This document shows positions 3,082 through 18,274 of a DNA stretch of 18,274 nucleotides, in pieces. This DNA comes from Candidatus Aenigmatarchaeota archaeon (lineage in GTDB: Archaea; Aenigmatarchaeota; Aenigmatarchaeia; Aenigmatarchaeales; JACQIB01), in NCBI GenBank assembly GCA_046760225.1, contig JBHIDR010000017.1, positions 1-18,274 of the forward strand, in the 5' to 3' direction. Position 1 is the first letter of the stretch, and each line of letters opens with the position of its first letter. The position numbers and the translations under genes are program-made. The notes beneath the pieces are model-generated. The model was not told the DNA's origin. It ran no database searches and saw only the letters and a list, made by a program, of their open reading frames with translations.

Positions 3082-3112
3082 ACTAAGCTCAGGTTCTCCT
3101 TTACCTCGGGTA

Positions 3113-3156: not shown

Positions 3157-3182
3157 AAACGAGTTCTCCGACACCTCAGGGT

Positions 3183-3261: not shown

Positions 3262-3293
3262 AATATAGAATAAGTTCCCGGGTCTTTTAAACA

Positions 3294-3930: not shown

Positions 3931-5514
3931 ATGTGCGGGATTGCTGGTGTGTATACTCCCGGAAAGAGCGTTGTAGTAAAACTGGCCAAGATTATGAAGA
4001 AAGAATGGACCAGGGGACACACTTCTTTCGGTATAGAGACCTATGATGAGAAGGGAAACCTCTACATAAGAAAAGGGATGAGAACGCCGGGTGATGAAGA
4101 CCTCGAAGGCCTGAAGGGGGACATAGGGATAGGACACCAGAGATATTCCACGCGTGGCTCGAACAAAAAGTATTTTCTGAAAAGGAATTCCCAGCCGATG
4201 TCATTGCACATTTTCCCGATAAAGGGCGGCGGGTTTGTGGCCGAGCGTTGCGACTATGTCTATGAGGATGAGTTGGAAGTAAAGAGCATGATGTCGATCG
4301 CTCATAATGGGGACATATTCAATACGGAAGAAAGGAGAGATTATCATTACCAATGCGACATAAAGTATTTTGCCTGGCCATTTGCAGATGAGCTTGCAAA
4401 AGATTATGATGGAACAATATCCAAGGAAAAGCTTACCAAGGTTGCCCGGAAAGTTATCCCGCAACTCAAGGGAAGTTTTTCTTTTGTTGGTTACACGGTC
4501 GATAGGAATCGCAACAAGACCATGTTCGCAGGAAGGGACCCGTGGGGGATAAAACCGGGCTTCATAGGAGAGGTTGACGGGGGATACGCGGTGGCCTCGG
4601 AGGACGCCGCGCTCAAGACCATAGGCTGTAAGAGGGAGGATATATTCGAAATGAAGCAGGGGCATTTCTACATCATTGATATGGATCATGACACTGAAAG
4701 GGTGGAAGTCGAGGATGTAGAAATAAAGGTAGAGAAACCTGCTTTTTGCGCCTTTGAATTCGTATACTTCGCGGACAGGAACACCACTTTTCGCGGGAGG
4801 AACGTGGCAAGAATAAGGAATGAGATGGGAAGAAGGCTCGGAAAGGAACATCCTCTCAATGTCCATATGGTCGTCCCTATTCCGGAATCCGGGAGGTCCG
4901 TGGCCATCGGTTATTCCCATGCAACAGGCGTACTTTACGAAGAAGGTTATAGCAAGAACAGAGGAATAAGCGATATACGTACTTTCATATTGCAGGAACA
5001 GGAGGCGCGTGATGAAGAGGTGCTGAATAAATTGGATCCCATCAGGGAGGTTCTTGAAGGAATGGACGTCGCGGTGGCGGATGACAGCCTGGTGCGCGGG
5101 ACCACCATGAGAAAACTAGTCAAAAGGACGCGAGATGAAGGCGGGGCAAACGAGGTCCATGTGCTCATGGGATGCCCGCCGCAGGTATCGCCCTGTTATC
5201 TTGGAATAGACATGAGGACGCGAGGAGAGTTCGCTGCAGCGCGGGCGGCAAGGAGGCTGGGTTATGATATCTACAAGGGGTTCCGTGATTTTGATAACAT
5301 GGGCCTGACAAAGGAAGAGCTCGTGAACGTGATTGAAGAGATAAAGGAGGAGATAGGCGCGGACGGTCTATACTATCTCAGCTTTGAGGGGATGAGCGAA
5401 ATAGTAGGTGATGGCTATTGCTTTGGTTGCTGGAACCCATCATTGAACCCAAAGGATTTGAGGAAGGACATAATCAGTTCTATAAGGGATAATCCAGAAG
5501 GATACAGGGTCTAA
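3931..5514 (+). CDS. purF: Amidophosphoribosyltransferase
   Basis: Ntn nucleophile MCGIAG, GHQRYSTRG, AHNGDI, RDPWGIKP, CAFEFVYFA, VPIPESG, PRPP loop DDSLVRGTT, SPCYLGIDM and CFGC (Fe-S-type cysteines). Confidence 0.97.
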   Translation: MCGIAGVYTPGKSVVVKLAKIMKKEWTRGHTSFGIETYDEKGNLYIRKGMRTPGDEDLEGLKGDIGIGHQRYSTRGSNKKYFLKRNSQPMSLHIFPIKGGGFVAERCDYVYEDELEVKSMMSIAHNGDIFNTEERRDYHYQCDIKYFAWPFADELAKDYDGTISKEKLTKVARKVIPQLKGSFSFVGYTVDRNRNKTMFAGRDPWGIKPGFIGEVDGGYAVASEDAALKTIGCKREDIFEMKQGHFYIIDMDHDTERVEVEDVEIKVEKPAFCAFEFVYFADRNTTFRGRNVARIRNEMGRRLGKEHPLNVHMVVPIPESGRSVAIGYSHATGVLYEEGYSKNRGISDIRTFILQEQEARDEEVLNKLDPIREVLEGMDVAVADDSLVRGTTMRKLVKRTRDEGGANEVHVLMGCPPQVSPCYLGIDMRTRGEFAAARAARRLGYDIYKGFRDFDNMGLTKEELVNVIEEIKEEIGADGLYYLSFEGMSEIVGDGYCFGCWNPSLNPKDLRKDIISSIRDNPEGYRV

Positions 5515-6770
5515 GGTGTGACCCTGTCCAGGGTTCTTGGGAACGCTATTGTGTCAAAGATATGGGGCGCTCCTGTGAGCCACATCACTAACCTCTCTAT
5601 TCCAAGACCGAACCCGCTGTGCGGAACTGTTCCATAGCGGCGGAGGTCAATATACCATTCATAATCCTTCTTGGGCAGCTTGAAGAGCTTGAGGGATTCT
5701 AGCAGTTTCTCCTTGTCATAAATCCTCTCTGAGCCGCCGATTATTTCACCAACCCTTGGCACGAGCAGGTCTGCGCCAAGAACAACCTTGGGATCCTTGG
5801 GATCAGGCTCCATATAGAAAGCCTTCATCTCACGCGGGAACCTCTCAAGAAACACAGGAGCCTTTGCACCTATTTTTTCCATTAGCTCCCTCTCCTCTTT
5901 GTCAGTGAGGTCATGCCCCCATTTGAGCCCGAGCTTTTTTATGGCATCTGCATACATTATCCTCTTGAAAGGCGCTGTGAGCTGTTCGAGGTCAGTTGTG
6001 TCTCTGCCAAGCTCTTTCAGCTCCTTCTTGCAGTGCTTCAGTACATGCTTTACAATGTGCAGTATCATGTCTTCCTGGAACTTGATTATCTCCTCATAAC
6101 CTACCCAGGCAAGCTCGACCTCAGCAGTCCAGTACTCAGACAGATGCCTAACTGTCCTGCTCTTCTCAGCCCTGAATGCCGGAGTAATCGTGTATATGCG
6201 CTCAAGTGCCTGTATCATGGCCTCAGCATAGAGCTGCCAGCTCAGGGAGAGGTAAACACCCTTCTTGTCACCATACTTCTTGACTTCAAAGAGCTCTGCG
6301 CCTGTTTCACAGGCAGATTTTGTGAATATTGGTGATTGCACCTCATGGCATCTGCGCGACCTGCAAAAATCATGAATTGCCCTGAAGACCTCGCTGCGCA
6401 CCTTCATGATCTCAGTGAGCTTTCTGCTGCGAATCCAGAGATGCCGCACATCGCGCAGGAATTCCTCAGAGAGGTCCCTTCCTATTGGAAATCTTTCAGC
6501 AAGGCCTATTATTCCAAGCTCCTTTGCCTGTATTTCATAGCCGCCTGGTGCGCGCTTGTCCTCCTTTACACTGCCCCTGACAGTCACAGATGATTCTATT
6601 GTTGCTTTCTCAGCCTCAGGAATCCCCTTGCATGCTAGCTGTATTATTCCAGAGCTGTCCCTGAGTATAATGAACACTATCTCCTTCTGCTCCCTCTTCC
6701 TGTATACCCATCCGCGCAAGGACACTTCTTTGCCCCTGTACTTCGGGACATCGCTTATTGGCACGAACAT
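5511..6770 (-). CDS. asnS: Asparagine--tRNA ligase
   Basis: OB fold (LRGWVYRKR, FIILRDSSG), QLYAE, FRAEKSRTVRHLSEYW, GEIIGGSER, YEWYIDLRRYGTVPHSGFGLGIER. ATG at 6770 preferred over TTG at 6779 (GGGGTTGA SD-like motif upstream). Confidence 0.93.
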   Translation of the reverse strand: MFVPISDVPKYRGKEVSLRGWVYRKREQKEIVFIILRDSSGIIQLACKGIPEAEKATIESSVTVRGSVKEDKRAPGGYEIQAKELGIIGLAERFPIGRDLSEEFLRDVRHLWIRSRKLTEIMKVRSEVFRAIHDFCRSRRCHEVQSPIFTKSACETGAELFEVKKYGDKKGVYLSLSWQLYAEAMIQALERIYTITPAFRAEKSRTVRHLSEYWTAEVELAWVGYEEIIKFQEDMILHIVKHVLKHCKKELKELGRDTTDLEQLTAPFKRIMYADAIKKLGLKWGHDLTDKEERELMEKIGAKAPVFLERFPREMKAFYMEPDPKDPKVVLGADLLVPRVGEIIGGSERIYDKEKLLESLKLFKLPKKDYEWYIDLRRYGTVPHSGFGLGIERLVMWLTGAPHIFDTIAFPRTLDRVTP

Positions 6771-6810
6771 CTTAATCAACCCCTATTTGTCTTTTCTCTG
6801 TTTTAAATGT

Positions 6811-6885
6811 TGGCGCCCGGAGCTGGACTCGAACCAGCACCCTCTTGGTTAACAGCCAAGCGCTCTTCCATTGAGCTATCCGGGC
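6811..6885 (-). tRNA. tRNA-Asn (anticodon GUU), intronless, CCA encoded
   Basis: GCCCGGA TA GCTC AATGGAA GAGC G CTTGG CT GTT AA CCAAG AGGGT GCTGG TTCGAGT CCAGC TCCGGGC G CCA, a 75-nt cloverleaf. Confidence 0.97.
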
Positions 6886-6893
6886 TTTGCCAA

Positions 6894-7853
6894 TCATACA
6901 CTCACCTCTCCTGGAAGCTTTGGAAACGGTGCTGCCTGTTCCACTCTTTCAAGTCCGCAGACAAATCTGGTAAGCCTTTCCAGGCCGAAACCAAAACCTG
7001 CTGTTGGCTTGATCCTGCTTTTTTTCAGCAAGTCCAGATACCAACTGTATATTCTGGGCTTTTCACCAACCTGCTTCAGCTTCTTTGTTATTAGTTCTGG
7101 TATGTCTTCCCTCTGACTTCCAGACACTGCCTCGCCAAAACCCTTTGGATATATCATGTCAAAGGCGAGGAGCTTTTCCCTTTGTTTTGGGTATATTTTG
7201 TCGTAAAATCCTCGTGAGCCAGTTGGGTAGTCCACTATGAAGAACGGTTCATCAAACTGCATTGATATTGCTTTTTCAGCTTCCCATGGAATCTCCTTTC
7301 CTTCTTCTATGGAAAAGCCAAGCTTTTCTGCTAGTTTTAATGCTTCTTTGTATGGCAGCCTCTTGAAAGGAAGTTTCGGGACCTTTAGCTCCTTTCCCAG
7401 CTTTTTCTTGACAACAGGCATGATTTCTCTCATTATGTCCCTTAAAATAGTTTCTGCTACTTCCATGGCCCTGTCCCTGCTGGCCCCGCTCAACTCAACA
7501 TCTATTTGCCAGAACTCACACAAGTGGCGTCCTGTTTTTCTTGCTGATAAAGGCTCCTTTCTGAGGCACGGAGATATGGAAAATACCTTTCCAAGCGCAC
7601 TGGCAGCCAGCATCTTTTGCAGAATCATGCTGCTGGTCACTTTCCACCTTTTGCCATAAAAGTCAACCTCGAACTGCTTGGCTCCTCTCAGGCCGGGATC
7701 AGTTGCAGATGCTATTATGGGCGGCCTTATCTCGAGAAAGCCCTGTCTTTCCAGGCTTGATTTGGCAGCAGCTATTATGGCATCCTGTATCTCAAGGACG
7801 TCCCTCATGCCCCTCAGCCTTTCAACTGGACATGCCTGTAACTTGCGCCTCAT
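6894..7853 (-). CDS. Archaeal asparagine synthetase (AS-AR / AsnRS2, truncated AsnRS paralog)
   Basis: 319-aa class IIb aaRS catalytic core with no anticodon domain: IIASATDPG, TSSMILQK, SPCLRKE, GRHLCEFWQIDVE, GEAVSGSQRE, PTAGFGFGLERLTRFVCG; SD GGAGGTG. Confidence 0.9.
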   Translation of the reverse strand: MRRKLQACPVERLRGMRDVLEIQDAIIAAAKSSLERQGFLEIRPPIIASATDPGLRGAKQFEVDFYGKRWKVTSSMILQKMLAASALGKVFSISPCLRKEPLSARKTGRHLCEFWQIDVELSGASRDRAMEVAETILRDIMREIMPVVKKKLGKELKVPKLPFKRLPYKEALKLAEKLGFSIEEGKEIPWEAEKAISMQFDEPFFIVDYPTGSRGFYDKIYPKQREKLLAFDMIYPKGFGEAVSGSQREDIPELITKKLKQVGEKPRIYSWYLDLLKKSRIKPTAGFGFGLERLTRFVCGLERVEQAAPFPKLPGEVSV

Positions 7854-8011
7854 TTCAACACCTCCAGGGCAACCCTGACCTTAGAACTAGGGCTTATTTT
7901 CTTGATCTTCCTGACTTCCTTTGGAACAATTATCCTTCCTTTAGAATCAAGCTTAGCAGTGAAACTAGACAGGTCTTCAAACGCCCTTTTCCAAGTTTTC
8001 TCGTTCACCAC
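7850..8011 (-). CDS. AbrB/MazE/SpoVT-family DNA-binding protein (about 53 aa), not in the ORF track
   Basis: Hand translation MVNEKTWKRAFEDLSSFTAKLDSKGRIIVPKEVRKIKKISPSSKVRVALEVLK; LDSKGRIIVPKEVR is the swapped-hairpin signature; GTG start 9 nt after AGGTGA; TGA overlaps the AS-AR ATG (ATGA). Confidence 0.85.
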   Translation of the reverse strand: MVNEKTWKRAFEDLSSFTAKLDSKGRIIVPKEVRKIKKISPSSKVRVALEVLK

Positions 8012-8022
8012 GCATTGGTTTC

Positions 8023-8057
8023 ACCTAATAGTAATTACAATCAGGTAGTATATAAAA
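8023..8057 (-). promoter_or_regulatory. TATA box plus 24-bp imperfect palindrome (putative operator) of the asparagine module
   Basis: Minus-strand TTTTATATA at 8049-8057; ACCTAATAGTAATTACAATCAGGT (8023-8046) matches its reverse complement at 20/24 positions and lies between the TATA box and the SD. Confidence 0.65.
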
Positions 8058-8075
8058 GTTGCTGTTTCGTGGGAA

Positions 8076-8092
8076 TGGCGCCCGGGACAGGA
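8076..8092 (-). repeat. Detached 3' fragment of tRNA-Asn (att-like direct repeat)
   Basis: TGGCGCCCGGGACAGGA is 16/17 identical to 9213-9229 (TGGCGCCCGCGACAGGA), the last exon of the intron-containing tRNA-Asn. Confidence 0.8.
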
Positions 8093-8113
8093 TTTTCTAA
8101 CCTCTGAAAGGAT

Positions 8114-8362
8114 TTATAATTGGACAAGATTTCTAATACCTACTTCGTTTACGAGGTCTCTCCAGGAACGCGAACCCTTAACACGCCGCTTATAGAACCT
8201 AGGTTTTTTACCCTTGGGATAGCGTATAGCATACTCGTTAAAGAAGTCAATAATCTTAATGTCTTCCCCCTTAACATAAGGCCCTTCGTTTCTTATCCTA
8301 CTAGCAAATTCTTTAGGGTCATAATATTCACAAACGTGAGTGCCCCAATCTATTCTTTCCAT
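8114..8362 (-). CDS. Hypothetical protein (82 aa)
   Basis: ATG-started ORF, co-oriented with and 34 nt downstream of the protease-like gene; no motif recognised. Confidence 0.65.
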   Translation of the reverse strand: MERIDWGTHVCEYYDPKEFASRIRNEGPYVKGEDIKIIDFFNEYAIRYPKGKKPRFYKRRVKGSRSWRDLVNEVGIRNLVQL

Positions 8363-8396
8363 ATAATCACTATTATTAAGTAGTTTTTTAGATTAT

Positions 8397-9155
8397 TTAT
8401 TTCTTTCCTTTATTCTTTCGTCTTTCAACTAACTCGATATAGTCCTCATCCAGGACAACTTTGAATTGAGATAAGACATCCCAACCCAGTATCATATGTG
8501 GAAGAAGGTCGATTACTAAAGTACCTCGTTTTACACTTTCAAAGCGTCTTTGATATTTTCTGATGAATTGGCATTGCTCATTGTTGAGCCCTTTAGTGTC
8601 AAAGATTTTGAGAAGGTCCATTGTGACACCTTTTTCCAAATCACTACAATAACGCCTGATATCACTCGAATAATAAAGTGACGTAGCAAACCTATCTTCA
8701 AATTCCTCTGCTAATCGAGGTAAAAATCCAATACCCCCATCAATATCAACAGCAAACTCAAATGTGTTTATATATGGAATAGAGGCGCACGCAGCTTTGC
8801 CGTTTTCTCCTTCTATCCTTACTCTCAATTCAGCGTCATAGGTACAATGGTAAAACCTTCCCCCAAGACCAGACCCATAACCTTGTAGCTTTCCTTCTTC
8901 AAGTCCCAGCGCGGTGCGAAATTCTGGGGGTAGAAGCGTGACTGCACCGCCAGTATCCATAAGTACCTTGTCGAATAAGATGTCGTAGCTATCATCCGTG
9001 AATGGTCGCTTTACTACTCTTTTATCTAGATTACTGGGGACAGATATCAGTATATCTGGCTTGCGCATGTTTCTACTTCTATGGTATAGACCAATTTTTC
9101 CGGACATGAGATAGCCGTTCCGAATCTGTAACTTGGCACCTTCTCCCTCACTCAT
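8397..9155 (-). CDS. Retropepsin-like (clan AA) aspartyl protease-like protein with a large insertion
   Basis: VLMDTGGAVTLLP catalytic motif, Gly-rich flap GYGSGLGG and terminal ILGWDVLSQFKVVLD; TTTAAAT upstream at promoter spacing. Confidence 0.75.
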   Translation of the reverse strand: MSEGEGAKLQIRNGYLMSGKIGLYHRSRNMRKPDILISVPSNLDKRVVKRPFTDDSYDILFDKVLMDTGGAVTLLPPEFRTALGLEEGKLQGYGSGLGGRFYHCTYDAELRVRIEGENGKAACASIPYINTFEFAVDIDGGIGFLPRLAEEFEDRFATSLYYSSDIRRYCSDLEKGVTMDLLKIFDTKGLNNEQCQFIRKYQRRFESVKRGTLVIDLLPHMILGWDVLSQFKVVLDEDYIELVERRKNKGKK

Positions 9156-9212
9156 AATTATTACTTAGAAGTAAAAACATTTAAAGGTAACCATAAAGGG
9201 ATAATTAAATTT

Positions 9213-9351
9213 TGGCGCCCGCGACAGGAATCTCACCTGAGTTTTGAACCTTTGGCCTGCTATTGATCATTGCCAACACCATGTGACCTCCCGGTTAACA
9301 GCTTCGCCTGGGTTTAACCCATCGGACGCTCTTCCCCTGAGCTACGCGGGC
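9213..9351 (-). tRNA. tRNA-Asn (GUU) with three introns (30/31, 50/51, 59/60)
   Basis: Removing 9322-9303 (20 nt), 9282-9252 (31 nt) and 9242-9230 (13 nt) gives the 75-nt cloverleaf GCCCGCG TA GCTC AGGGGAA GAGC G TCCGG CT GTT AA CCGGG AGGTC ACAGG TTCAAAT CCTGT CGCGGGC G CCA; each junction forms a BHB-type motif. Confidence 0.9.
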
Positions 9352-9496
9352 ATTAATAAAGAATTGATGCCATTTAATAAAAAACTTGCAAAAGAGCTTG
9401 AAATGATATTTTACGCTTTACCCGGTTAAAAGAGTTAAATATCAACATTTATATACTGGTAAGTAGTAATTTATTATAGGATAAGGTGGTTAGCTG

Positions 9497-11479
9497 ATGG
9501 TAGAAAAAGGCACTAAGAAGAATAAAGAGCACGTTTTAGAGAAAGTTTACAGGTCATTAAAAGACAAGGGCATGTCAGACAAGGAAATTGACAGCAAGAT
9601 GCACGCGGCAATGCTTCTTTCATATGTCGGTGCTACTTACAATGTTATGGACCAGAAGAGCCTGCCCACTCCGCTTTTCAGGGCAAGGTGGAAGAAGAGG
9701 GACAAGAAAGTGGAAGTGGAGATATTAAAGGGAAGGCCAAAGGTCCCGATACCTGATTCAGTTGAGATCAATGCACTTGACCTGGTGCTTGCTCACCAGA
9801 TGAGGGACATACCCCTCCTGTGGCTGGGCGAATCAGGCACAGGAAAGACCCATGTTACAGAATGCTTTTATGCCACAATAGCCAGGCCGGAAAACATATA
9901 TTCCCTGACACTTGAGTCAGGACTGACAGGAAGCAGTGTTCTTGACCCGTTTACCCGGGGCGTACAGGAGGACGGTATGTCTAAATTGAAGATTCTGAGG
10001 GAGTCTCTTGACCAGTATATCGGGATTTTCATTGATGAGCTAACAAGAGGAGATACCAATGATATCATAAAAATTGTTGATGGGCTGGTCGTGGCAGGTT
10101 CTGAAAGGGGCAGATTAGGAATACCCATACCTGAGTTAAAGCAAGGAAAGCTCGAGTACGATGGAAGAAAGAAGAAAATGCAGGTAGTGGGTGCAGCCAA
10201 CCCCCCGAACTCAAGGTACAGCAGGGCAATAGACCCTGATGATGCCATAAAGCAGAGGTTCCAGATGTATGATTTCGAGAGCATTGCGCAGAGCGCAGGC
10301 TCATCACTGTGGAGAACAGACCCTGTTGAAGGCGGCCATGAGAAATTCATTGACCTGTTCAAGAAAAGGACATCAGAATATCTTGGTATTGACAAGTCAC
10401 TCTTCGATGGAATAGAAGATGACTGGGTCAGCCTGTATGCATGGATAACCGATTCCGAGAGGACAAGCAAGGACCAGATATACAGCGCACTTGAGTTCGC
10501 TGACATGCTGGGAGCGGCTATGTCACAGGGCTACAGCGCTACAGCCCAGGAGGAGCAGGACGAGCTGGAAGCATGGAGCAACATGCTTGAGAACGAGTAC
10601 GGCATAAAGTTCGAATTCAATTTCGCTGTCAGGGAAGACAGCGATGAGGTAAAGAAGATATACGAAGTTGTAAATTCCATGAGGGAGCCCCTTGTGCCCA
10701 GGGACATTGTAAAGGTAAAGAAGATGGCTGATGCAATAAAGACAATCAGGGAGCTCAAGACGTCCTTCTCCAACAGCGATCCTTTCGAGAAATACATGGA
10801 TATCCTTAGTAAGGAGGAAAAGAGGGCAATCACAATAGCTGATGTTGCATATTCTGCTGTCCTGCTTACAACCAGCAAGCAGAAAAGGGAGGAAGGCATA
10901 GAGTACCCGGACCCCTCAGACCTGGTAAACAAGACAATCAAGCAATACCTGGAGCTCGAGGAAGCCTACAAAAAGACCTTTGGAGTCAAAGTTGGCACCT
11001 TTGATTTCAATGACCCGAACAGGGGGATAAAGAACTTCGCCCTCAGCCAGGCAGTGCATGGTGCAGTGAAAATGGGAAGAAAGGGCATAAGGAACACCAA
11101 GGACGAGGAAGTTGTGGCAGCAGGTGATTATTCCTCTGCTCTGATATACTCCTTGAAGGAACAGGTAAAGAAGCTCACAGGACTGAAGGACGACAGCAAG
11201 CCAATGAGAAACATCATGCTCGCAAACATAATAGGAGACCTGACAACCCTGGCAGGTTTTGTGGGGATATATTACAAGGATGATGTCAACAAGGCAATAG
11301 CAAGCAAGGCAGACGGCTACTTTGACGCGAAAAAGAAGGACCCCAAGTACGGCGCAACCCACAAGAACGTCCTGCCAATAGAGGACGCCATAAAGGACGT
11401 CTATGACAAGAAGCAGAAGGAGCAGGCAATCTTCTTCCCAGACTACTTCGAGCACAGGCTCCTGAGGCTGTTCAGGTGA
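9497..11479 (+). CDS. MoxR-like AAA+ ATPase with a long C-terminal extension (660 aa)
   Basis: Walker A GESGTGKT, Walker B IFIDELTR, sensor-1 VVGAANP, arginine finger DAIKQRF; SD AGGTGG; near a vWA gene as usual for MoxR. Confidence 0.85.
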   Translation: MVEKGTKKNKEHVLEKVYRSLKDKGMSDKEIDSKMHAAMLLSYVGATYNVMDQKSLPTPLFRARWKKRDKKVEVEILKGRPKVPIPDSVEINALDLVLAHQMRDIPLLWLGESGTGKTHVTECFYATIARPENIYSLTLESGLTGSSVLDPFTRGVQEDGMSKLKILRESLDQYIGIFIDELTRGDTNDIIKIVDGLVVAGSERGRLGIPIPELKQGKLEYDGRKKKMQVVGAANPPNSRYSRAIDPDDAIKQRFQMYDFESIAQSAGSSLWRTDPVEGGHEKFIDLFKKRTSEYLGIDKSLFDGIEDDWVSLYAWITDSERTSKDQIYSALEFADMLGAAMSQGYSATAQEEQDELEAWSNMLENEYGIKFEFNFAVREDSDEVKKIYEVVNSMREPLVPRDIVKVKKMADAIKTIRELKTSFSNSDPFEKYMDILSKEEKRAITIADVAYSAVLLTTSKQKREEGIEYPDPSDLVNKTIKQYLELEEAYKKTFGVKVGTFDFNDPNRGIKNFALSQAVHGAVKMGRKGIRNTKDEEVVAAGDYSSALIYSLKEQVKKLTGLKDDSKPMRNIMLANIIGDLTTLAGFVGIYYKDDVNKAIASKADGYFDAKKKDPKYGATHKNVLPIEDAIKDVYDKKQKEQAIFFPDYFEHRLLRLFR

Positions 11480-11493
11480 GAAGGTGCATGATG

Positions 11494-11865
11494 ATGAACT
11501 ATAACAAAACAATAAAAACAAACATTGAAGACCTCACACCGGATGAGTTTGTAATAGATGTGGATAAGAAGGAGAAAAAAGACAAAAAGCCAGTAAAGAT
11601 AAGAAAAAGGAGAAGGCTCAGAAAGGGTCATGATGAAGGAAACGTTCTCAGGCTTGTTGAGAACTTTAATTACGTTACAAATCTTAAGGACGAATATAGC
11701 GGTAGGTTTTTTGACTGGGAAGATGTAATAGAGAAAACTACACGTCATTGGGACTACAGTATTGAGGACGCAAAAGAGACAGCAAAGAGACTTGAGAGCA
11801 GGCCGTACAGCTCAATTTACGCTTTCTTTCTCACCAAGAGAAAGACAAATAAAAGTGGTGCATGA
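11494..11865 (+). CDS. Leader-tagged hypothetical protein 1 (EDLTPD-type leader)
   Basis: MNYNKTIKTNIEDLTPDEFVIDVDKKEKKDKKPVKIRKRRR...; SD AGGTG at 11482; start could be 11488, 11491 or 11494; ATGA overlap with the next gene. Confidence 0.8.
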   Translation: MNYNKTIKTNIEDLTPDEFVIDVDKKEKKDKKPVKIRKRRRLRKGHDEGNVLRLVENFNYVTNLKDEYSGRFFDWEDVIEKTTRHWDYSIEDAKETAKRLESRPYSSIYAFFLTKRKTNKSGA

Positions 11866-14105
11866 TTATGGCTAACATAGACAGAGGTATAAATGAAGCA
11901 GAAAAGATATTCAGGGGCACAATTGAAAGAGAGATGCCTCTGTTCAAGAACATCGAAGTGAACAGGAAGTGGAAGAAGCCTTTTCCAGGCATGTACTGGA
12001 TGTTCTCCATAGGCAAGAAGAAGCCAACAGACGAGAAGAACCTGATAAATGCCTGGGTTTTCAATCCCAAGGCACTTGACAAGGCCTTCAAGGATGTTGT
12101 GAACCTCTATAACAACAAGAAGCTGATGGGAACAGGCGAGATTGAAAGACTTTACAGCCTGAAGGGCCGCAAGATAGACAAGGAGCACTACAAGGAGAAC
12201 CTCATGCTCATGGTGCCCACATACCTGTTTTTCCATGAAATAAACCACAAGGACATACCTTTCGGCAGGGAGGACGAGAAGAAGATTGACAAGGCGCTCT
12301 ATGAAGCAATAAGGGAGATCTGCCCGAATGAGAGCAGGGCAACAACTGTTCTGAAGGTCTCTGGTTGCAGGAACATGGTCTGGGATTTTGGTGATGATAC
12401 TGCCTTTTTCAAGGAATGGAAATATGACAGCCTGGGAGATACACTGAGGGACGAGATCAAGAACTATGGTGTTGCGCTTGACGGAACCAAGGTTGACGAC
12501 CTTCCTGACGGCACAATACCAGTATGGGATGTTATTGAACTTCATAGGTCTGACCAGCCCCTTAGCAAGACAAGGGGTGATGCTACTGCATCATGGGCCA
12601 TGAGCAGGATCATGTACAGCATGCTGTTCGCAGACACAGACACACTGAGGGGCAATCTTTTCAAGATGTTCTATGATGCCATGCTCAAGTCACCTGAGGC
12701 AAGGAGAAAGGGTATACGCAAGGACGGTGTCAGGAAAAGGGTAAAGGACGCCTTCAAGAACATGGCAAGAATACAGAAGAAGGACGTTATTGATGTTCTG
12801 AATGTTGATGGTTCTGAATTTGATGTGAAGAAATACTGCGCTGCAGTTGACGACATGTATGACAACATGATGGACAAGGCATATGTCAAGGACAGGGACT
12901 ATGTCCTCAAGTGCATAACAACCCTGATATCAGACGACAAGAGCAGGTACGAGTCCCTCAAGGGATTCATAAAGCCCTTTGCAGACATCCTCTCAGCCCA
13001 GATGTCAAGTGCAAGGGGAGAAGGAGAAATAGGTTCTGGATCTGTTTCCTCAGCACTCGAGAACCTGCTCGAAGAACTGGACCAAGGCGAAGCAGAGCAG
13101 CTGCTTCAGGACGTGATGAACGAGATGGGCGATGAAAATCCATATCAGCCTGGTACTGGTAGAGGCAGGGGAAGAGGCGGCGACAGCCCAAGACATGGCC
13201 TTGACATGATAGCAATGGACGAGTACTACAAGAAGAACCGCTACAAGATTGATGTAAAGAACCCCTCTTACAAGGACGAGGTCGTTGATGCAGGTGTGGA
13301 ACAGGAATGGGTGCTAAAAAGATCTTCAAAGATTACAGATGAGCAGAGATTAAGGTATATGAATAAAATAGAGAGGCACCAGAGGACTGTTGGTCCCAAG
13401 CACCCTGTCTTGATTGAGCGAGGAAAGGGCATATGGACCCTTAATGAATACGAAGTCAAGGAAACACAGCTCATCACAACCAGGACAGTCTCAACAGGAA
13501 TAGAGGTGCCTAAAAACATTATATTCATCCCTGACTGCTCAGGAAGCATGTTCACAGGAATCGGCTGGGGTCATGGTTCAGGAAATTATGCTGGCTCAGG
13601 CTTGCCATATGACGAGCTGAACAAAGTTATCTATGGTGTGACCGAGGCACTTGTTAATGCAGCCAGCAAAATGAAACAGAAGGTGCATGGAGCTGCTGCT
13701 CCGTTCTCCAATAGCACAAGATGGAGCGGTTTCCATGACCTTGCAGAATCATACAAGACAGCTGACAACCCGTTCAAGCAAATGCTCCACACACCTGAGG
13801 AAGGCGGGACATACCTTGATGCAACTGTCTTTGACAGGGCAGAGAAGGAGAAGGAAAAGGGCAAGACAGCTTACATAATCATAACTGACGGTCAGCTTGA
13901 TGGAGGCGATTCAGTGCTCCAGAAGATGAAGCAGTATTCCAAGAACAAGGACAATGCATTCATTTATATTGAAATCGGCGGAAGCTCAGATTTCGGAGGA
14001 GAAGTAAAGAAATTCGCAAAAAGGCACAACAATGTCAGCCATTACATCGAGAACATCAGCACGCTCGGAAAGAGGCTCGAGAGCATACTGATAAAATATG
14101 GGTGA
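11862..14105 (+). CDS. HEXXH metallopeptidase-like + C-terminal vWA (MIDAS) domain protein (747 aa)
   Basis: FFHEINH then RNMVWD in the N-terminal part; Gly/acidic linker (GTGRGRGRGG); MIDAS IFIPDCSGSM...EGGT...IIITDG. Confidence 0.85.
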   Translation: MIMANIDRGINEAEKIFRGTIEREMPLFKNIEVNRKWKKPFPGMYWMFSIGKKKPTDEKNLINAWVFNPKALDKAFKDVVNLYNNKKLMGTGEIERLYSLKGRKIDKEHYKENLMLMVPTYLFFHEINHKDIPFGREDEKKIDKALYEAIREICPNESRATTVLKVSGCRNMVWDFGDDTAFFKEWKYDSLGDTLRDEIKNYGVALDGTKVDDLPDGTIPVWDVIELHRSDQPLSKTRGDATASWAMSRIMYSMLFADTDTLRGNLFKMFYDAMLKSPEARRKGIRKDGVRKRVKDAFKNMARIQKKDVIDVLNVDGSEFDVKKYCAAVDDMYDNMMDKAYVKDRDYVLKCITTLISDDKSRYESLKGFIKPFADILSAQMSSARGEGEIGSGSVSSALENLLEELDQGEAEQLLQDVMNEMGDENPYQPGTGRGRGRGGDSPRHGLDMIAMDEYYKKNRYKIDVKNPSYKDEVVDAGVEQEWVLKRSSKITDEQRLRYMNKIERHQRTVGPKHPVLIERGKGIWTLNEYEVKETQLITTRTVSTGIEVPKNIIFIPDCSGSMFTGIGWGHGSGNYAGSGLPYDELNKVIYGVTEALVNAASKMKQKVHGAAAPFSNSTRWSGFHDLAESYKTADNPFKQMLHTPEEGGTYLDATVFDRAEKEKEKGKTAYIIITDGQLDGGDSVLQKMKQYSKNKDNAFIYIEIGGSSDFGGEVKKFAKRHNNVSHYIENISTLGKRLESILIKYG

Positions 14106-14109
14106 TTGA

Positions 14110-14973
14110 ATGAGAGAAAGAACAGTAAGAAAACCTATACCAGACGCAACCGACATGAAAGAAGTAGAGGAGAGTATAAGGAAGCAATCTAAGAAAAGAA
14201 AAGTAAAGAAACTAAAGAGGAAACCTCAGCCAATACCTTCTAACTTGGTCCCAAGGAATGAGAAGTATTATAAAGCATGGGTAGATTACTTCAGGCACTT
14301 CAATGCACGTGACCCTGAAATCATGGCTGCCTTAATTGACTTTATTAAATTTTCATGTAGAGGCATAGATATAGGTGCAGTGAATAAAGATACTTTCATC
14401 CAAACCCTTAAAATTGTAGGAAAAGAGGACGAGGCAATTGTTTATGAAAGCTTGAGAACTATTCCAAGCGAATTCAACCTTACTGATGTTGCTCTTACCC
14501 AAATGGGCATCATAGCTTCAGAATTTAGAAAAAAGAATGTAACAGATGTTAATGAAGAACTTTTTCATTATACAAGTGATAACCTCAAATTTTACATAAC
14601 TCCATATATACTTGCAAAATGGATGACTGAAGGGACAGCAGGAGTATATCTGGCTTTGCTGGATTCTCTTGATGAAGATTATCACTTGGAATTTGAATGG
14701 AAAAGGAGAAGCGATCCAGAGTATGATTACAAAGAATATAATAAATTCAAGAAAATCAGCTCCAAATTAAGAAATCCAAAGACCCTTGCGCCGTTTGTAA
14801 AGGAGGGCAAGGATGTTACAGCTTTCTTGAATGAGTACACAATTATGTTTAAGGAAATAAGCAGAATGAAGAAATCCAACCATGATTGCGGTCATGAGCC
14901 TCATAATCCTCGGGGGACGTCGTATTGTAGAGCTTGTAAGATGCTAGACAACTTTTACAAGGAGAAGAAGTGA
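14110..14973 (+). CDS. Leader-tagged hypothetical protein 2 (PIPD-type leader; C-terminal Cys/His cluster)
   Basis: MRERTVRKPIPDATDMKEVEESIRKQSKKRKVKK...; ends HDCGHEPHNPRGTSYCRACK; 4 nt after the vWA stop. Confidence 0.85.
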   Translation: MRERTVRKPIPDATDMKEVEESIRKQSKKRKVKKLKRKPQPIPSNLVPRNEKYYKAWVDYFRHFNARDPEIMAALIDFIKFSCRGIDIGAVNKDTFIQTLKIVGKEDEAIVYESLRTIPSEFNLTDVALTQMGIIASEFRKKNVTDVNEELFHYTSDNLKFYITPYILAKWMTEGTAGVYLALLDSLDEDYHLEFEWKRRSDPEYDYKEYNKFKKISSKLRNPKTLAPFVKEGKDVTAFLNEYTIMFKEISRMKKSNHDCGHEPHNPRGTSYCRACKMLDNFYKEKK

Positions 14974-14977
14974 TTTT

Positions 14978-16477
14978 ATGACAAAAGAAAATACAACCTA
15001 TGGAAGAACAGTGAGGAGACCCATACCAGACTATGCAGACCCTGATGTGGAAGAAGTAGATGTAAAAGCAATTGTCGGCAAGCCAAAGCCCAAGAGCAGC
15101 TATTCTGCACCAGCACAGGGTGACCTGGGGCAATACATAAGTAACATTGAAAAGGTCCTTGATGCTCTTGAACAGACAGAGACAATGCTTGGCAGGTATC
15201 CTGAGGACTTCCCTAGAATAACAAAGGCTAAAGCAGAAGAAATACTGAAGAGGGACGAATGGAAGGGCATTATGAAGGACTACAGGGAGATTGAGCTTCT
15301 TGAGGCTTCTATTGACGAGCATGTAAGTAGGGGTGATGATTACAGAATGCTGGCAAAGGCACCGATCATTGATACCCGTATAGGCCTTGATTACAACCCA
15401 TCCACAAATGCAATAAATCTTTCAAATCTAGTGGTGCAGACAAGAACCATACCCCGAGGAATTGATACTTTCATGAGGATTTTCCTGAAACAGGCAAAGA
15501 AGAACAAAAAGGCCACTGTTTCCTTGAGGTATGGAAAAAAGACAGAGCAAAGGGAAAAGGAAGTTCCAGGAAGATTCTGGGGCACAAAGAAGGTCAAGGA
15601 ATATGTTCAAGTTGTAGACAAAGGAAAGATAGAAGGCATAGTTGTCCAGTATGATGATGCAGAGATTGATGTAAAGTTTGAGGAAAAGCATGGTGACAAG
15701 AAAGTCTCTTTCAGGGGCTCCATATCAGAGCCGAACAAGGACGAGAACATTACTCAGCTCTACAAGTGGCTTTTTAGGTTCGACAAGACAACATACGAAG
15801 ATATGGTAAAGAATATCCATGATATATATGAGAAAGGAACAAAGCTCGAGGAAAAGCTGCACAAGGACAAGAACTACAAGTCAGTGCTCAAGCTTATCAA
15901 GGACAACATACCAGAGGACAAGATACCGGATGTGATAGAGAAGAGGAACAAGATCATTGGGAACAAGGGCAGGCTGGAGGAAAATCTTGAAGGCCTTTAC
16001 ATCCCATGCGGGGATATAGTTGCCACAAACATCTCTGTTGACAATTACGGAACAATCAAGATATCAGCTAAAGGAAATTGTAAGAACATATCAGCCAACA
16101 AATACGTGGATGTTCTTGAGGCGCTCATGGAAAAATATGCAATTGAAGGTGAAATCCATACAGAAAAGGACAAGGATAGTGTTTACTACAAGATATTCAC
16201 TGAAATAAAGGATGACCAAATGAAAACGAAGAAAGGACCAGTTTATAGCTATAGTGGCTACAATTACATGGATAGTAGCGAATCAGATTACAGCAGAGAC
16301 AAAGACAATGAAATCAAATATCTCAATGTCAGGAAAGCTGAGATAAAATTCCAGACAGAGGACGTCAACAGCAAAGGGGAAATAAAGTACGAGAATGGCA
16401 AGTTCTCCTTTTTCATCAGGACAAACCCCGAGCATATCGATGATTTTAAGGATATACTGCACACACCGGTGAAATGA
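14978..16477 (+). CDS. Leader-tagged hypothetical protein 3 (PIPD-type leader, 499 aa)
   Basis: MTKENTTYGRTVRRPIPDYADPDVEEVDVKAIVGKPKPK...; long ORF 4 nt after the previous stop; body not recognised. Confidence 0.85.
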   Translation: MTKENTTYGRTVRRPIPDYADPDVEEVDVKAIVGKPKPKSSYSAPAQGDLGQYISNIEKVLDALEQTETMLGRYPEDFPRITKAKAEEILKRDEWKGIMKDYREIELLEASIDEHVSRGDDYRMLAKAPIIDTRIGLDYNPSTNAINLSNLVVQTRTIPRGIDTFMRIFLKQAKKNKKATVSLRYGKKTEQREKEVPGRFWGTKKVKEYVQVVDKGKIEGIVVQYDDAEIDVKFEEKHGDKKVSFRGSISEPNKDENITQLYKWLFRFDKTTYEDMVKNIHDIYEKGTKLEEKLHKDKNYKSVLKLIKDNIPEDKIPDVIEKRNKIIGNKGRLEENLEGLYIPCGDIVATNISVDNYGTIKISAKGNCKNISANKYVDVLEALMEKYAIEGEIHTEKDKDSVYYKIFTEIKDDQMKTKKGPVYSYSGYNYMDSSESDYSRDKDNEIKYLNVRKAEIKFQTEDVNSKGEIKYENGKFSFFIRTNPEHIDDFKDILHTPVK

Positions 16478-16478
16478 T

Positions 16479-16952
16479 ATGGGAGACAGAATACTCAAAG
16501 GAGAATTTGAAGACCTCACACCAGATACCTATGTGATAGATTTGGACGAGGAGAAGGAAGAGCCAGAAAAGAAACGTATTCCTTCATTTAAGGAATATCT
16601 GGAAGAGAATGTTACGCCTGAAAAGACACATGAAGAGATTGCTGAGGAATACCAGCAGCAGTATGGCTCAAGGGGCGATGACATCAAGACCATCTACCAG
16701 GTCCTTGAGGAGTCAAGGGCAGACAACGGCAGGAGGACTGATTACACCAACGACAAGAAGAGAATAGAGACAAACGGCAAAAAGAAGCCCAAGAAGAAGA
16801 AAGAAGAGGAAAAGTATGATGACCCGTTCGCAGACTATACTGATGATGACTTTACAGTTGAGATGGACAGGGGCTTGGAAGTCAAATCAGAAGAAAAATG
16901 GTACCAGGCTGCTTGGAGGAAATTCAAGAACCTTTTCAGCAGGGGGAAATGA
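16479..16952 (+). CDS. Leader-tagged hypothetical protein 4 (EDLTPD-type leader; highly charged; amphipathic C-terminus)
   Basis: MGDRILKGEFEDLTPDTYVIDLDEEKEEPEKKR...KWYQAAWRKFKNLFSRGK. Confidence 0.85.
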   Translation: MGDRILKGEFEDLTPDTYVIDLDEEKEEPEKKRIPSFKEYLEENVTPEKTHEEIAEEYQQQYGSRGDDIKTIYQVLEESRADNGRRTDYTNDKKRIETNGKKKPKKKKEEEKYDDPFADYTDDDFTVEMDRGLEVKSEEKWYQAAWRKFKNLFSRGK

Positions 16953-17128
16953 TTATGAACAACAATCGTAACAAAATAATAAAGAGACCAATACCAGATG
17001 CAACTGACACAAAAAAGATAGAGGAAAGTATAAAAGAGAAAAAAGGAAGAAGAGCAGAAAGAAGAAAAGAAAGAAGGGTGCATGATTATGACCACTCCAT
17101 ATGGAAAGACAATAAAAGGGCGGATTGA
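16949..17128 (+). CDS. Leader-only mini-ORF 5 (PIPD-type), possibly frameshifted
   Basis: ATG at 16949 overlaps the previous TGA; MIMNNNRNKIIKRPIPDATDTKKIEESIKEKK closely matches the 14110 leader; as read, it runs 47 nt into the next gene. Confidence 0.65.
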   Translation: MIMNNNRNKIIKRPIPDATDTKKIEESIKEKKGRRAERRKERRVHDYDHSIWKDNKRAD

Positions 17129-17921
17129 AGACCACACAGAAGAAGAAATAAAGATAGATTTTGATGAGGAAGAGAAAAAACCAGTAAAAAAGAGGAAAAA
17201 AAGAAAGCTAAAAAGAATGGACACACCACCATTTCTTCCTGAAATAATAGAGGCAGGATACGAAATAAATGAAATAATGCCTAACCGCAACATATTCTTC
17301 GGGTATCTGACACTTGAGGTCCCCAAGACAGAGAAATATTATGAAAAGGATGGTGAACCAGTTCTTTTTGATTCTAATGGTGAAGAAGAGAATTATTATG
17401 GATTTAGTGAGAAAGAGGTTAAAGAGACGAGACAAGACTTCAATTTGAAGAGAAGCGCTGAAGAGTATATAAGAAAGGTTATATCAAAGAAGCTCGAGCC
17501 CATATTAGAGATAGTCGAGAATATTTACAAAGATACAAAGCCTGTAAGGTATTTTTTTACCAAGATTGATGATATTTCATTCAACATTTATAGCTGTAGA
17601 AGGGACACCGATTACAGTTTTAGTGAATTTTCCCCTGTTAGTCATGTAACAGTACAAGGCGCTGACTTTCTGACCATTGATTTTCGTTACACACTTGAAG
17701 AGACAGAAAAAATAAAGAAAGGGACAAAAGACCATTATTTGGAGAGGAGTTTTACTGACAAGCTTCTAGGAAGAGAGCCCGAGAAAAGGGTATTGGACTA
17801 TTATCATGTCTATGACAGGCCTGAATTATACGTAAAATTTAATGCACGCTCCATTGCTAACAACAGGAAAAATGCACTAATCAAGACCCTGAAGAAAGCA
17901 GGCTTCAAGGTACATAGGTGA
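17082..17921 (+). CDS. Leader-tagged hypothetical protein 6 (279 aa)
   Basis: MIMTTPYGKTIKGRIEDHTEEEIKIDFDEEEKKPVKKRKKRKLKR...; SD GGGTG; start at 17082 or 17088. Confidence 0.85.
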   Translation: MIMTTPYGKTIKGRIEDHTEEEIKIDFDEEEKKPVKKRKKRKLKRMDTPPFLPEIIEAGYEINEIMPNRNIFFGYLTLEVPKTEKYYEKDGEPVLFDSNGEEENYYGFSEKEVKETRQDFNLKRSAEEYIRKVISKKLEPILEIVENIYKDTKPVRYFFTKIDDISFNIYSCRRDTDYSFSEFSPVSHVTVQGADFLTIDFRYTLEETEKIKKGTKDHYLERSFTDKLLGREPEKRVLDYYHVYDRPELYVKFNARSIANNRKNALIKTLKKAGFKVHR

Positions 17922-17926
17922 TCTTT

Positions 17927-18274
17927 ATGAACTATCATAAGACAATCAAAGGCAGGTTTGAGGACCTCACACCAGATGAATTTGTGATAGAGGTTGATGA
18001 TGAAGAGAAAGAAGAAAAGAAGCCATAGCAGAAGCCTCCAGAAGTCAAAAAAGTGACATCTAAAGAAGCTCAGGAAGTGTATGATCTGTTGGACAAGATA
18101 GAGATGCCCAAAGATGAAATAGAGTTCATAACGTGCTATAATCTTCCCAAGAAGTACAGGGACTCCATGGGCGGGTCATATGTTGTCAATCTGACCCATG
18201 GCCAGGCAACGTTGCTTGCTCAACTGGTGTCAAAAAAGACAGGTGTGAGATACAGGCTCCCTTCTGTTCAGGGC
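17927..18274 (+). pseudogene. Leader-tagged ORF 7 interrupted by an in-frame TAG; downstream part FGE-sulfatase-like; runs off the window
   Basis: MNYHKTIKGRFEDLTPDEFVIEVDDEEKEEKKP, TAG at 18026-18028, then the same frame is open for 82 codons ending VVNLTHGQATLLAQLVSKKTGVRYRLPSVQG; SD AGGTGA upstream. Confidence 0.65.

Follow-up and report, generated by a model that had tools for sequence, protein, structure and literature searches.

A shared N-terminal peptide tag on otherwise dissimilar proteins encoded with an AAA+ ATPase and an HExxH-vWA adaptor in a DPANN archaeon

The window analyzed here is a whole stretch of 18,274 nt from a Candidatus Aenigmatarchaeota archaeon (contig JBHIDR010000017.1). 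Its right half, positions 9,497-18,274, carries the following genes and features on the plus strand:

9497..11479, plus strand: AAA+ ATPase, AAA_5/MoxR-like, 660 aa, with a core at about residues 100-330 and a family-conserved C-terminal helical half
11494..11865, plus strand: tagged client A1, 124 aa, between the ATPase gene and the vWA gene, no Pfam family at cut-off
11862..14105, plus strand: HExxH-vWA adaptor, 747 aa, with an N-terminal HExxH domain, two long strands and a C-terminal vWA domain
12234-12248, plus strand: HEINH of the adaptor, the HExxH motif
about 13497-14102, plus strand: vWA domain of the adaptor, with the MIDAS sequence DCSGS at 13533-13547
14110..14973, plus strand: tagged client B1, 287 aa, C-terminus rich in Cys/His
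14978..16477, plus strand: tagged client B2, 499 aa, no family in Pfam
16479..16952, plus strand: tagged client A2, 157 aa, very charged
16955..17128, plus strand: B3, 57 aa, tag and Arg/Lys tract alone, overlapping the start of A3 in a different frame
17088..17921, plus strand: tagged client A3, 277 aa from the ATG at 17088, with an alternative ATG at 17082
17927..18274, plus strand: tagged client A4, running off the contig end, with an in-frame TAG at 18026-18028

Apart from the two enzymes, every plus-strand ORF of this run (seven of seven) starts with a related leader, as a preliminary description of the locus had claimed, and its account of the spacing also holds, the genes lying 1-14 nt apart or overlapping. 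The leader, hereafter the tag, is about 20 residues long and in most cases leads into a charged linker, which is often rich in Lys/Arg. It starts 2-10 residues past the start codon in the window ORFs and has the consensus [KR][TIV][IV][KR]xx[IF]xD followed by an acidic stretch, the Asp being the sole invariant column of the leader alignment. The tag of A1, for example, lies at 11506-11565 and leads into a Lys/Arg tract (K+R 0.47 after the tag). A Lys-rich tract had been noted after each leader; a K+R content of at least 0.30 over 30 residues was found after four of the six window leaders measured and nine of 15 genome-wide, while the tract is weaker in the rest. The KTIKGRFEDLTPDEFVIE and RTVRRPIPD leaders had been treated as separate types. 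They are related, as stated, but constitute a single family, for the copies on contigs C10 and C27 mix both.

Twelve copies of the motif [KR][KR]PI.D are present in the six-frame translation, where composition predicts 1.5 and 10 shuffles gave a mean of 1.2 (maximum 2). All 12 copies are situated at ORF starts, 11 of them 2-15 residues past a Met and one 3 residues past a GTG. A profile search (E<0.01) identified the tag in 17 ORFs of the genome, on 10 contigs. Eight of these tags belong to one co-directional array together with the single-copy pair of ATPase and adaptor genes, and nine others are elsewhere in the genome. The prediction that the leader would be found at N-termini was thus borne out, whereas its expected confinement to the operon was not. 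Conserved tag residues are written with differing codons, and the A-type tags are mutually 61-77% identical in DNA (A2 against the other A-type tags, 61-62%). Among strain variants in the tag core, B1 has three that are synonymous and one K-to-R change, and all four of B2 are synonymous. The drifting codons and these variants (seven synonymous, one K-to-R in B1 and B2 together) indicate, at the sequence level, that the tag is selected as a peptide.

Behind the tag, the proteins mostly differ, as had been said of them. Their bodies range from 57 to 609 aa in length, and one body family with three members is shared, with no other pair of bodies alike at E <= 0.01. With the exception of one wHTH, the tagged bodies have no Pfam family; PHROGs, NCBIfam and PADLOC gave nothing informative for any client, and B1 has no family match in Pfam, PHROGs or Atlas. 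The body of A4 is akin to C36:416-856 and C27:9311-9850. The TAG codon of A4 at 18026-18028 is TAT in X1, the sole public contig covering the site. Reading this TAG as a recoded codon was rejected, because the covering contig has TAT and TAG is a common terminator, ending 136 of the 618 long frames that have a complete stop codon. The X1 contig continues from there into contig C36. Reading on beyond position 18274, as had been proposed, added one tagged gene on the adjoining contig, the eighth member of the array.

The ATPase, which is single copy in the genome, has Walker A GESGTGKT, Walker B IFIDE, an NPP sensor region and R254 (RF); G111, G114, G116, K117, D180, E181, N235, P236 and R254 are invariant in 16 homologues. 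By these signatures it has the P-loop core of an AAA+ protein, complete with both Walker motifs and an arginine finger. The assignment to MoxR made in the preliminary description is upheld by the AAA+ motifs and the adjacent vWA gene, but the match to Pfam AAA_5 (E 0.0023, 18.4 bits) is under the cut-off of 22. Within the ATPase family, AAA_5 reaches E <= 0.001 in two of 16 members. A profile search of the PDB returned weak rows (McrB, E 0.01). AAA_5 is present in all ten of the nearest Atlas clusters, which serves as a lead but does not test the assignment. The protein thus appears weakly MoxR-like by profile, above no Pfam cut-off. Comparison with PDB chains by sequence gave nothing useful for the ATPase or the adaptor.

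The adaptor was modelled with AlphaFold (pLDDT 84, pTM 0.80), and its C-terminal domain is predicted to have a vWA fold with the DxSxS...T...D metal-site motif (DCSGS in the window). The vWA fold scored Z 14.8 in VIA (rmsd 2.6-2.7 over 167-174 residues), with Z 13.7 against Rea1-MIDAS and Z 12.9 against the NorD vWA domain (range 452-746), and the 14 PDB matches found by Foldseek at E <= 0.001 all contain vWA. The residues H125, H129, D558, S560 and D676 are invariant in 22 of 22 adaptor family members, and E126 and T650 are kept in at least 90% of them. The HExxH motif lies inside helix 107-128 of the model; the adaptor of genome G068 has HECPGH instead, one residue longer. For the N-domain (model pLDDT 80), VIA gave DPP III at Z 5.9, ZMPSTE24 and selecase at 4.8 and the zincin-like structure 3e11 at 4.6, amid unrelated helical rows, so that a zincin fold is weakly indicated by the model (Z <= 5.9). 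Foldseek found no match for this domain at E <= 0.001, and Pfam no peptidase family in the 22 family members. D138 is invariant in the N-domain alignment.

Neither the tag nor the ATPase was found in 40 relatives (0/40), and a search of 370 further genomes from the phylum did not find the tag either. Searches for related loci found none in viral contigs and none in metagenome contigs, a scan of genome contigs yielded one locus (L051), and a word-indexed protein search returned, apart from proteins of the window itself, a single adaptor with 58% identity on a contig of 3.2 kb. For comparison, 14 loci were used, taken from G068 and from a different DPANN phylum, of whose 28 matching genomes 13 were included. 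The ATPase gene adjoins an HExxH-vWA gene in all 14 loci. At eight of them, at least two neighbours have a common N-terminal peptide, which is their own and different from the others; at the remaining six, no neighbours have a common N-terminus. Of the nine shared-peptide clusters, eight are located between the two genes of the pair or no more than 1.6 kb away, and matches to the lineage tags were at the pair in seven of seven cases in G694, three of three in G419 and four of five in G435 (14/15 over the three genomes tested). Other DPANN genomes and a provirus carry differing counterparts of the tag beside related pairs. The window tag profile matched none of 267 ORFs across the 14 loci, and homology of all lineage tags was dropped on that ground. 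Therefore, speaking of the same system across lineages rests on layout, not on tag homology. Looking at the lineage tags by eye gives the impression, and only that, of a pattern of two aliphatic, basic, Gly/Pro and hydrophobic-acidic positions. In G371, a convergent aminotransferase gene comes directly after the vWA gene.

The tag exists, is locked to N-termini and co-occurs with the pair. It matches no known domain in Pfam, in agreement with the earlier remark that the leader was not recognised from any described family, it was not detected in the genomes that lack the pair, and the bodies are not full-length paralogs. Co-occurrence, the 0/370 result and the pair-locus peptides (14/15) lend comparative support to the claim that the leader serves as an N-terminal tag with a functional link to the AAA+/vWA pair. 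In that respect the preliminary interpretation is supported; its further ideas, that the invariant Asp completes the MIDAS site, that cargo is threaded or exported and that the HExxH domain cleaves it, are hypothetical. On balance, we regard it as probable that the right half of the window is a chromosomal locus of a DPANN-specific two-part machine, the ATPase and its HExxH/vWA partner, and that the tag is a constant handle for this MoxR-like/vWA machine. The adaptor would capture the handle, either at the MIDAS metal via the invariant Asp or in the HExxH groove. Using ATP, the ring of the ATPase would then remodel the client, release it or mount it, and the tag might be removed in the process. 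The clients would be otherwise unrelated, fast-evolving proteins, and one machine may so serve many variable cargoes. What we infer in this reading is that adaptor and tag physically bind, at which site they do so, whether cleavage follows and what the arrangement is finally for; our guess at the purpose would be the mounting of variable binding or surface proteins. The conserved MIDAS and HExxH residues of the adaptor, and the binding of an acidic target residue at the MIDAS site of NorQD, suit this reading. Counting against it are the unlike tags of different lineages, the tagged genes in other contexts, the six of 14 loci whose neighbours have no N-terminus in common, the aminotransferase gene of G371, the plain paralogs among some tagged neighbours elsewhere, the weakly indicated zincin fold and the ATPase profile score under the Pfam cut-off. 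A complex prediction for the whole adaptor with a 40-residue tag, run without controls, had a score of 0.00 and a mark of 0.32 and speaks neither for nor against binding.

It is unlikely, in our assessment, that the tag is instead a co-assembly element, perhaps a beta-hairpin, through which the clients bind each other or a common scaffold, while the pair acts on this assembly or elsewhere and does not read the tag. Clustered co-directional genes would suit the subunits of one assembly, and the A-type tags have weak matches to two strands of SH3-like barrels, namely the RimP C-terminal domain (E 0.055) and NCBIfam RimP (E 0.0046), but these are under every cut-off. Co-assembly also leaves unexplained that the tag changes by lineage along with the pair and that tags are nearly exclusive to pair loci.

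Less probable again is a virus-derived morphogenesis module, in which the tag would be a packaging or propeptide signal into a particle, like the T4 capsid-targeting sequence, and would be removed by the HExxH domain. L087 belongs to a tailed (pro)virus, with the module placed between portal and capsid; the families matched there are a terminase (phrog_38, E 1.9e-46), a portal, a major head protein and a scaffold, and L088 has the same placement as read from the gene map only. Moreover, the part of Iyer et al. (2021) on jumbo phages proposes virion assembly with proteolytic processing for a pair of MoxR and metallopeptidase-vWA proteins (PMC7824862), many of the nearest Atlas clusters of the ATPase are viral, and the distribution of the pair is patchy. 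Against this module, Pfam and PHROGs identified no capsid, portal, terminase or integrase in the window, and of the two ORFs scanned on the continuation C36 (60-395, TrmB regulator) none is viral. The flanks of the locus are cellular (AsnRS, PurF, TrmB regulator), the tagged genes are dispersed among cellular genes, and a tblastn search of 50,697 phage records came back without a match.

We also consider it quite improbable, more so than the viral module, that the tag addresses some other machinery for export, surface-anchoring or turnover and is near the pair only through a shared variable gene island. At least six tagged genes are in other contexts away from the pair, for instance in a pilus-like locus and next to RNA polymerase genes, which is not what a dedicated operon would predict. 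Some of them are near surface loci, such as an operon resembling those of type IV pili on C27, the gene of an Ig-domain protein of 1781 aa on C10 and that of a beta-helix protein on C74. However, the tags have no hydrophobic signal-like segment, the lineage tags of the three other genomes are almost only at the pair, and tagged genes sit between the ATPase and vWA genes in the window and in L084, L085, L087 and L088. That the start is merely inherited, within one family whose bodies diverged beyond recognition and whose N-terminus has no addressing role, is very improbable: some tagged neighbours in other loci are plain paralogs (six related pairs among eight loci) and the A-type tags retain DNA identity, but the window genome's bodies vary widely in length and are unlike apart from the three-member family, and the N-terminus is under purifying selection at the peptide level as codons drift.

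Beyond the handle proposed for the window, DPANN archaea and viruses might share a 'constant handle, variable cargo' system, in which a short N-terminal peptide co-evolves with an AAA+/HExxH-vWA loader and marks unrelated, quickly diversifying proteins, among them DGR-hypermutated binders in some lineages, for capture, processing and mounting at the cost of ATP; we offer this wider reading tentatively. For this tiny symbiont, the pattern hints at a so far undescribed route by which variable proteins would be directed to a single machine.

The known MoxR/vWA pairs are chaperones, each devoted to a single target. In the portions of PMC9976466 that concern them, NorQ/NorD, CbbQ/CbbO and RavA/ViaA resemble the window in having an ATPase ring and a single vWA partner, and the MIDAS site of NorQD binds an acidic residue of the target. 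The ranges of the window adaptor that align to NorD vWA and Rea1-MIDAS also take in long strands ahead of the core, at the place of the 'finger' in NorD. Each of those pairs has a single defined enzyme as its target, whereas at least 17 unrelated clients are marked by a peptide here; the window ATPase is twice as long as theirs, and the N-domain of the window adaptor bears HExxH.

For the vWA domain, Kaur et al. (2020) proposed the capture of a substrate peptide (PMC7159879). The vWA-MoxR ternary conflict systems treated there resemble the window in a core of MoxR and vWA with diversifying associated proteins, but they are bacterial and tied to a multicellular habit, and their variable parts are fused to vWA or VMAP instead of being free leader proteins (PMC7159879). 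They also have a VMAP, iSTAND, FtsH or beta-propeller third component or effector-associated domains. The operon proteins of the window matched none of these in Pfam at E <= 0.1, and PADLOC found none, so the parallel that the preliminary description had drawn to these systems fails at the component level.

The jumbo-phage pair resembles the window in that the AAA+ gene adjoins a gene whose product has an HExxH-type domain at its N-terminus and a vWA domain at its C-terminus, and chaperone/co-chaperone action with proteolysis was proposed for it; in the part of the paper on this pair, nothing is said of an N-terminal tag common to neighbouring genes (PMC7824862). Two relatives of the window pair, L087 and L088, are in tailed (pro)viruses, but no sequence similarity to phage records was detected and the locus of the window is chromosomal with cellular flanks. 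In phage T4, the internal proteins have an N-terminal capsid-targeting sequence, which is shared by otherwise unrelated polymorphic proteins and addresses them to one assembly. The T4 signal works with a scaffold core and a prohead protease and without an AAA+/vWA pair, while the window has no capsid genes. The pair of Acidianus two-tailed virus consists of p618 (MoxR) and p892 (vWA), and we know of no tagged client set for it. As in the window, this is an archaeal MoxR-vWA pair tied to the assembly of a structure, and it is set apart by description, not by sequence, in that the passage on it gives it no peptidase domain (PMC7824862). A review of DPANN dark matter makes no mention of MoxR, vWA, von Willebrand or AAA+ (PMC6393860). 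In the literature searched, we found no description of a tagged-client array with an AAA+/vWA pair.

DPANN archaea are dependent on host-cell contact, and to our knowledge their variable genes are mostly without assigned function. The tag groups 17 orphan proteins with one machine and provides a common experimental handle for these orphans. Since the client set would be encoded as a peptide label, client recognition is directly testable by tag swaps and by mutants of the Asp, MIDAS and HExxH residues. If true, the wider reading would add a new class of protein-targeting signal with its machine, possibly central to the display of variable host-interaction proteins by these symbionts.

The same layout in the relatives includes DGR-diversified proteins. 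At L087, there is an RT and an 86-nt repeat present three times, two copies of which are at the 3' ends of both tagged genes, and by this arrangement the tagged proteins of L087 are classed as DGR-diversified. The window clients are not DGR targets as judged by RT and template/variable repeats, and an RVT_1 match is absent from their genome (G000, 83% complete). Between 7800 and 18274, the tags are the only direct repeats to fall on annotated features, and the same region contains four shorter repeat families of 30-42 nt with 65-73% matches.

The window corresponds to the complete contig C17 of a genome of 0.85 Mb (G000; 83 contigs, 83% complete), and from position 9497 to the contig end it carries one co-directional gene block. 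As the preliminary description stated, the genes of this block are separated by 1–14 nt or overlap.

Layout of the window
Left half, cellular genes: MscS channel fragment, dCTP deaminase-like gene, Fic protein, kinase, PurF-like gene, AsnRS, tRNA-Asn, archaeal AsnA-like gene
From 9497, first gene of the block: ATPase, 660 aa
Between the ATPase and HExxH-vWA genes: A1, 124 aa
After A1: HExxH-vWA protein (the adaptor), 747 aa
Downstream of the HExxH-vWA gene, in this order: B1, 287 aa; B2, 499 aa; A2, 157 aa; B3, 57 aa; A3, 277 aa
Last gene of the window: A4, truncated by the contig end

All seven small or orphan ORFs of the block start with a related peptide, in agreement with the first reading of this DNA, and Asp is its sole invariant column. 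The division into two separate leader types did not hold, as copies on contigs C10 and C27 (KTIRRPIKDHMPDELVIE, KIIKRPIEDHMPDEFVIE) bridge both and leave one family. A profile built from the seven window leaders and iterated over the six-frame translation of the genome (E<0.01) recovered 17 ORFs, of which seven lie in the window and the others on C36, C27, C10 (two, adjacent), C32, C74, C29, C3, C16 and C51. Twelve copies of the core word [KR][KR]PI.D were counted, where composition predicts 1.5 and 10 shuffles averaged 1.2 (maximum 2). Every occurrence is at an ORF start, 11 at 2–15 residues past Met and one at 3 past GTG. By our own reading of the upstream letters, GGTG stands within 18 nt of the chosen start in 11 of the 17 tagged ORFs.

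The tag is conserved as a peptide. Its copies vary in codon use (four Pro, three Ile and two Arg codons), and contigs of related strains are available from a single study of vent samples (four public DNA runs, X1–X4); in these, B1 and B2 have seven synonymous changes and one K-to-R in their tag cores. Over the whole block, the strain changes are 24 synonymous and 12 non-synonymous, a stop-codon site apart. At 16365, the T of the window stands against G in contigs of three of these runs (X1, X2, X3), a difference that changes Val463 of B2 to Gly. A stretch resembling the tag core, KVPIPD, is also found at ATPase residues 82–87 (9740–9757); it is probably a chance match in the sequence, since it is not conserved in the homologues of G068 and L051.

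Behind the tag, the proteins mostly differ. A Lys-rich tract had been described after each leader; a 30-residue stretch with K+R of at least 0.30 follows it in four of six window proteins and is missing from the rest, and genome-wide it follows the tag in nine of 15 tagged proteins (background 0.12). All-against-all BLAST of the bodies gave one family of three (A4, C36:416–856 and C27:9311–9850) and no further relation at E 0.01 or better, and Pfam named nothing in the tagged proteins except a C-terminal winged helix in a 609-aa C10 protein. The tagged ORFs are thus not full-length paralogs, because their bodies are unrelated apart from this family. Two mini-ORFs consist of the tag without a body, at window 16955–17128 (57 aa, overlapping the next tagged gene) and at C16:32–106 (L025, 25 aa); they may be independent small proteins or remnants of tag-tag recombination.

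Across 16 homologues, the Walker A and Walker B motifs of the ATPase, its NPP sensor region and its RF arginine motif are invariant. The earlier assignment to MoxR is best softened to MoxR-like: the 10 nearest Atlas clusters all carry AAA_5 and many are viral, but the AAA_5 score of the ATPase itself falls under the cut-off. Only two of the 16 family members reach AAA_5 at E 0.001 or better, and a profile search of PDB sequences returned weak rows, including McrB at E 0.01. By sequence, the ATPase is very divergent.

The predicted structure of the adaptor (pLDDT 84, pTM 0.80) places a vWA domain at residues 546–747 (Z 14.8, structure comparison of the model). The model also matches Rea1-MIDAS (Z 13.7) and the NorD vWA domain (Z 12.9), and both matches extend back over two long strands before the core. 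NorD has a "finger" that has been suggested to reach into the pore of the ATPase (PMC9976466), and the two pre-core strands of the adaptor would occupy the position of this finger. Across 22 adaptor family members, neither the MIDAS residues nor the two HExxH histidines vary. When the N-domain was modelled alone (pLDDT 80), Foldseek returned no match and the VIA structure comparison gave weak rows, several zincins among them (Z 4.6–5.9), so a peptidase fold is no more than possible. In G068 (L033, 12748–14625), the adaptor relative has HECPGH, in which the two His stand one residue further apart, and its metal site may therefore be altered or dead.

Both genes are present in one copy each in the genome. 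Forty relatives from its genus, family and order gave no match to the ATPase. The tag, with 17 matches here, has none in these 40 genomes or in 370 others of the phylum. The adaptor family has few members: 76 representatives in a set of 1.8 billion proteins. Four of 371 genomes of the phylum, this one included, contain the adaptor at E 1e-5 or better. Its share is higher in a second DPANN phylum, to which the Woesearchaeota record L051 belongs (28 of 401 genomes, the unpublished G767 counted). For comparison, 14 loci were taken, from G068 and from the 13 best-matching genomes among the 28, without G767 and the weak matches. In all 14, the adaptor has an ATPase homologue next to it, sometimes with one to three intervening genes, like the window. 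In eight loci, two to four neighbours have an N-terminal peptide in common that scores higher than the 99.9th percentile for unrelated pairs; the other six have no such neighbours. Eight of nine shared-peptide clusters lie within the pair or at most 1.6 kb away, and the ninth, with an unrelated start, at 1.5–1.9 kb. In G371, the adaptor is followed by a convergent aminotransferase.

Lineage tags of four other DPANN genomes, with matches at the pair locus where a whole-genome search was made
G694: VLKPGD[IV]AFD and VLKPxxxxF; 7 of 7
G419: KVI[KR]GKDLEF; 3 of 3
G435: AK[IV]IQPKTLE; 4 of 5
G770: AKVI[RQ]GEGA

The bodies of the tagged neighbours in these loci are related in some pairs only. The window tag profile matched none of 267 ORFs in the loci of other lineages. 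The tags are lineage-specific, and no homology between them is claimed. No other genome examined has a client set as large or as dispersed as this one (17 ORFs, at least six of them clearly distant from the pair), and several dispersed clients adjoin surface loci.

The array continues beyond the window. Run X1, possibly the source sample, has a 21,576-nt contig that spans 9497–18274 in one piece and extends further; 525 nt on, it contains a second copy of 17925–17991 and then letters identical to C36:481–510. C36 therefore comes after C17, with a gap of about 112 nt. The array past C17 comprises the remainder of A4 and an eighth tagged gene (C36:416–856), and ends at a convergent TrmB-type regulator. 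Within A4, the window has an in-frame TAG at 18026–18028, and the sole public contig covering the site (X1, depth 20) has TAT (Tyr), so A4 is probably whole and the TAG may be an assembly error or strain variant. TAG is an ordinary stop in this genome, terminating 136 of 618 long frames with a complete stop codon. Tagged genes or paralogous bodies lie at six contig ends (C17 3', C36 5', C32 5', C16 5', C74 3' and C27 3'); repeated tags therefore probably break the assembly, and some "dispersed" tags may actually be neighbours.

Two related loci, L087 and L088, carry the module in the order tagged gene, adaptor, tagged gene, ATPase within a tailed (pro)virus. Family searches of L087 identified terminase, portal, scaffold, major head protein and reverse transcriptase, and the gene order of L088 matches it, from the gene map alone. 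An 86-nt repeat occurs three times in L087 (8420–8505, 8738–8823 and 11641–11726), with the reverse transcriptase at 14728–16401. Each of the two tagged genes flanking the adaptor gene has one copy at its 3' end, and most differences between these two and the remaining copy fall at positions where that copy carries a plus-strand T. This bias is the signature of a diversity-generating retroelement in a DPANN (pro)virus, with the two tagged proteins as its targets. In the window's genome, a search gave no RVT_1 match, and no L087-like repeats were found in 7800–18274 of the window.

The simplest account of these findings is that the N-terminal peptide is a handle by which the adaptor, and via the adaptor the ATPase, would recognise clients, handle and machine drifting together within each lineage. 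From published MoxR/vWA pairs, the obvious candidate is capture of an acidic residue by the MIDAS metal; a second, suggested by the conserved HExxH, is removal of the tag. A flexible tether would be a fitting role for the charged linker that follows the tag. As to function, our leaning is that the system would mount or mature variable interaction proteins, because several dispersed clients adjoin surface loci and those of a viral relative are hypervariable binders. MoxR/vWA chaperones are well known. A search of the full-text literature, supplements aside, turned up no account of N-terminal tags shared by neighbours of such pairs, and the window contributes a new tag. In outline, the gene pair itself has already been described in jumbo phages (PMC7824862).

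Upstream of the block, two orphan ORFs of 82 and 252 aa (8114–9155, minus strand) point away from the operon; the longer contains, internally at residue 50, a tag-core-like VVKRPFTDD that was not picked up by the tag profile. The gene at 616–1716 encodes a 366-aa protein with two dCTP deaminase-like matches (DCD twice; also the DCD_N and DCD_C families). A 97-aa ORF at 3001–3294 (minus strand) is probably no gene, since a tRNA-Arg (3183–3261) sits inside it. An asparagine trio occupies 5511–7853 on the minus strand: AsnRS (5511–6779), tRNA-Asn (6811–6885) and an AsnRS-like asparagine synthetase A (6894–7853).
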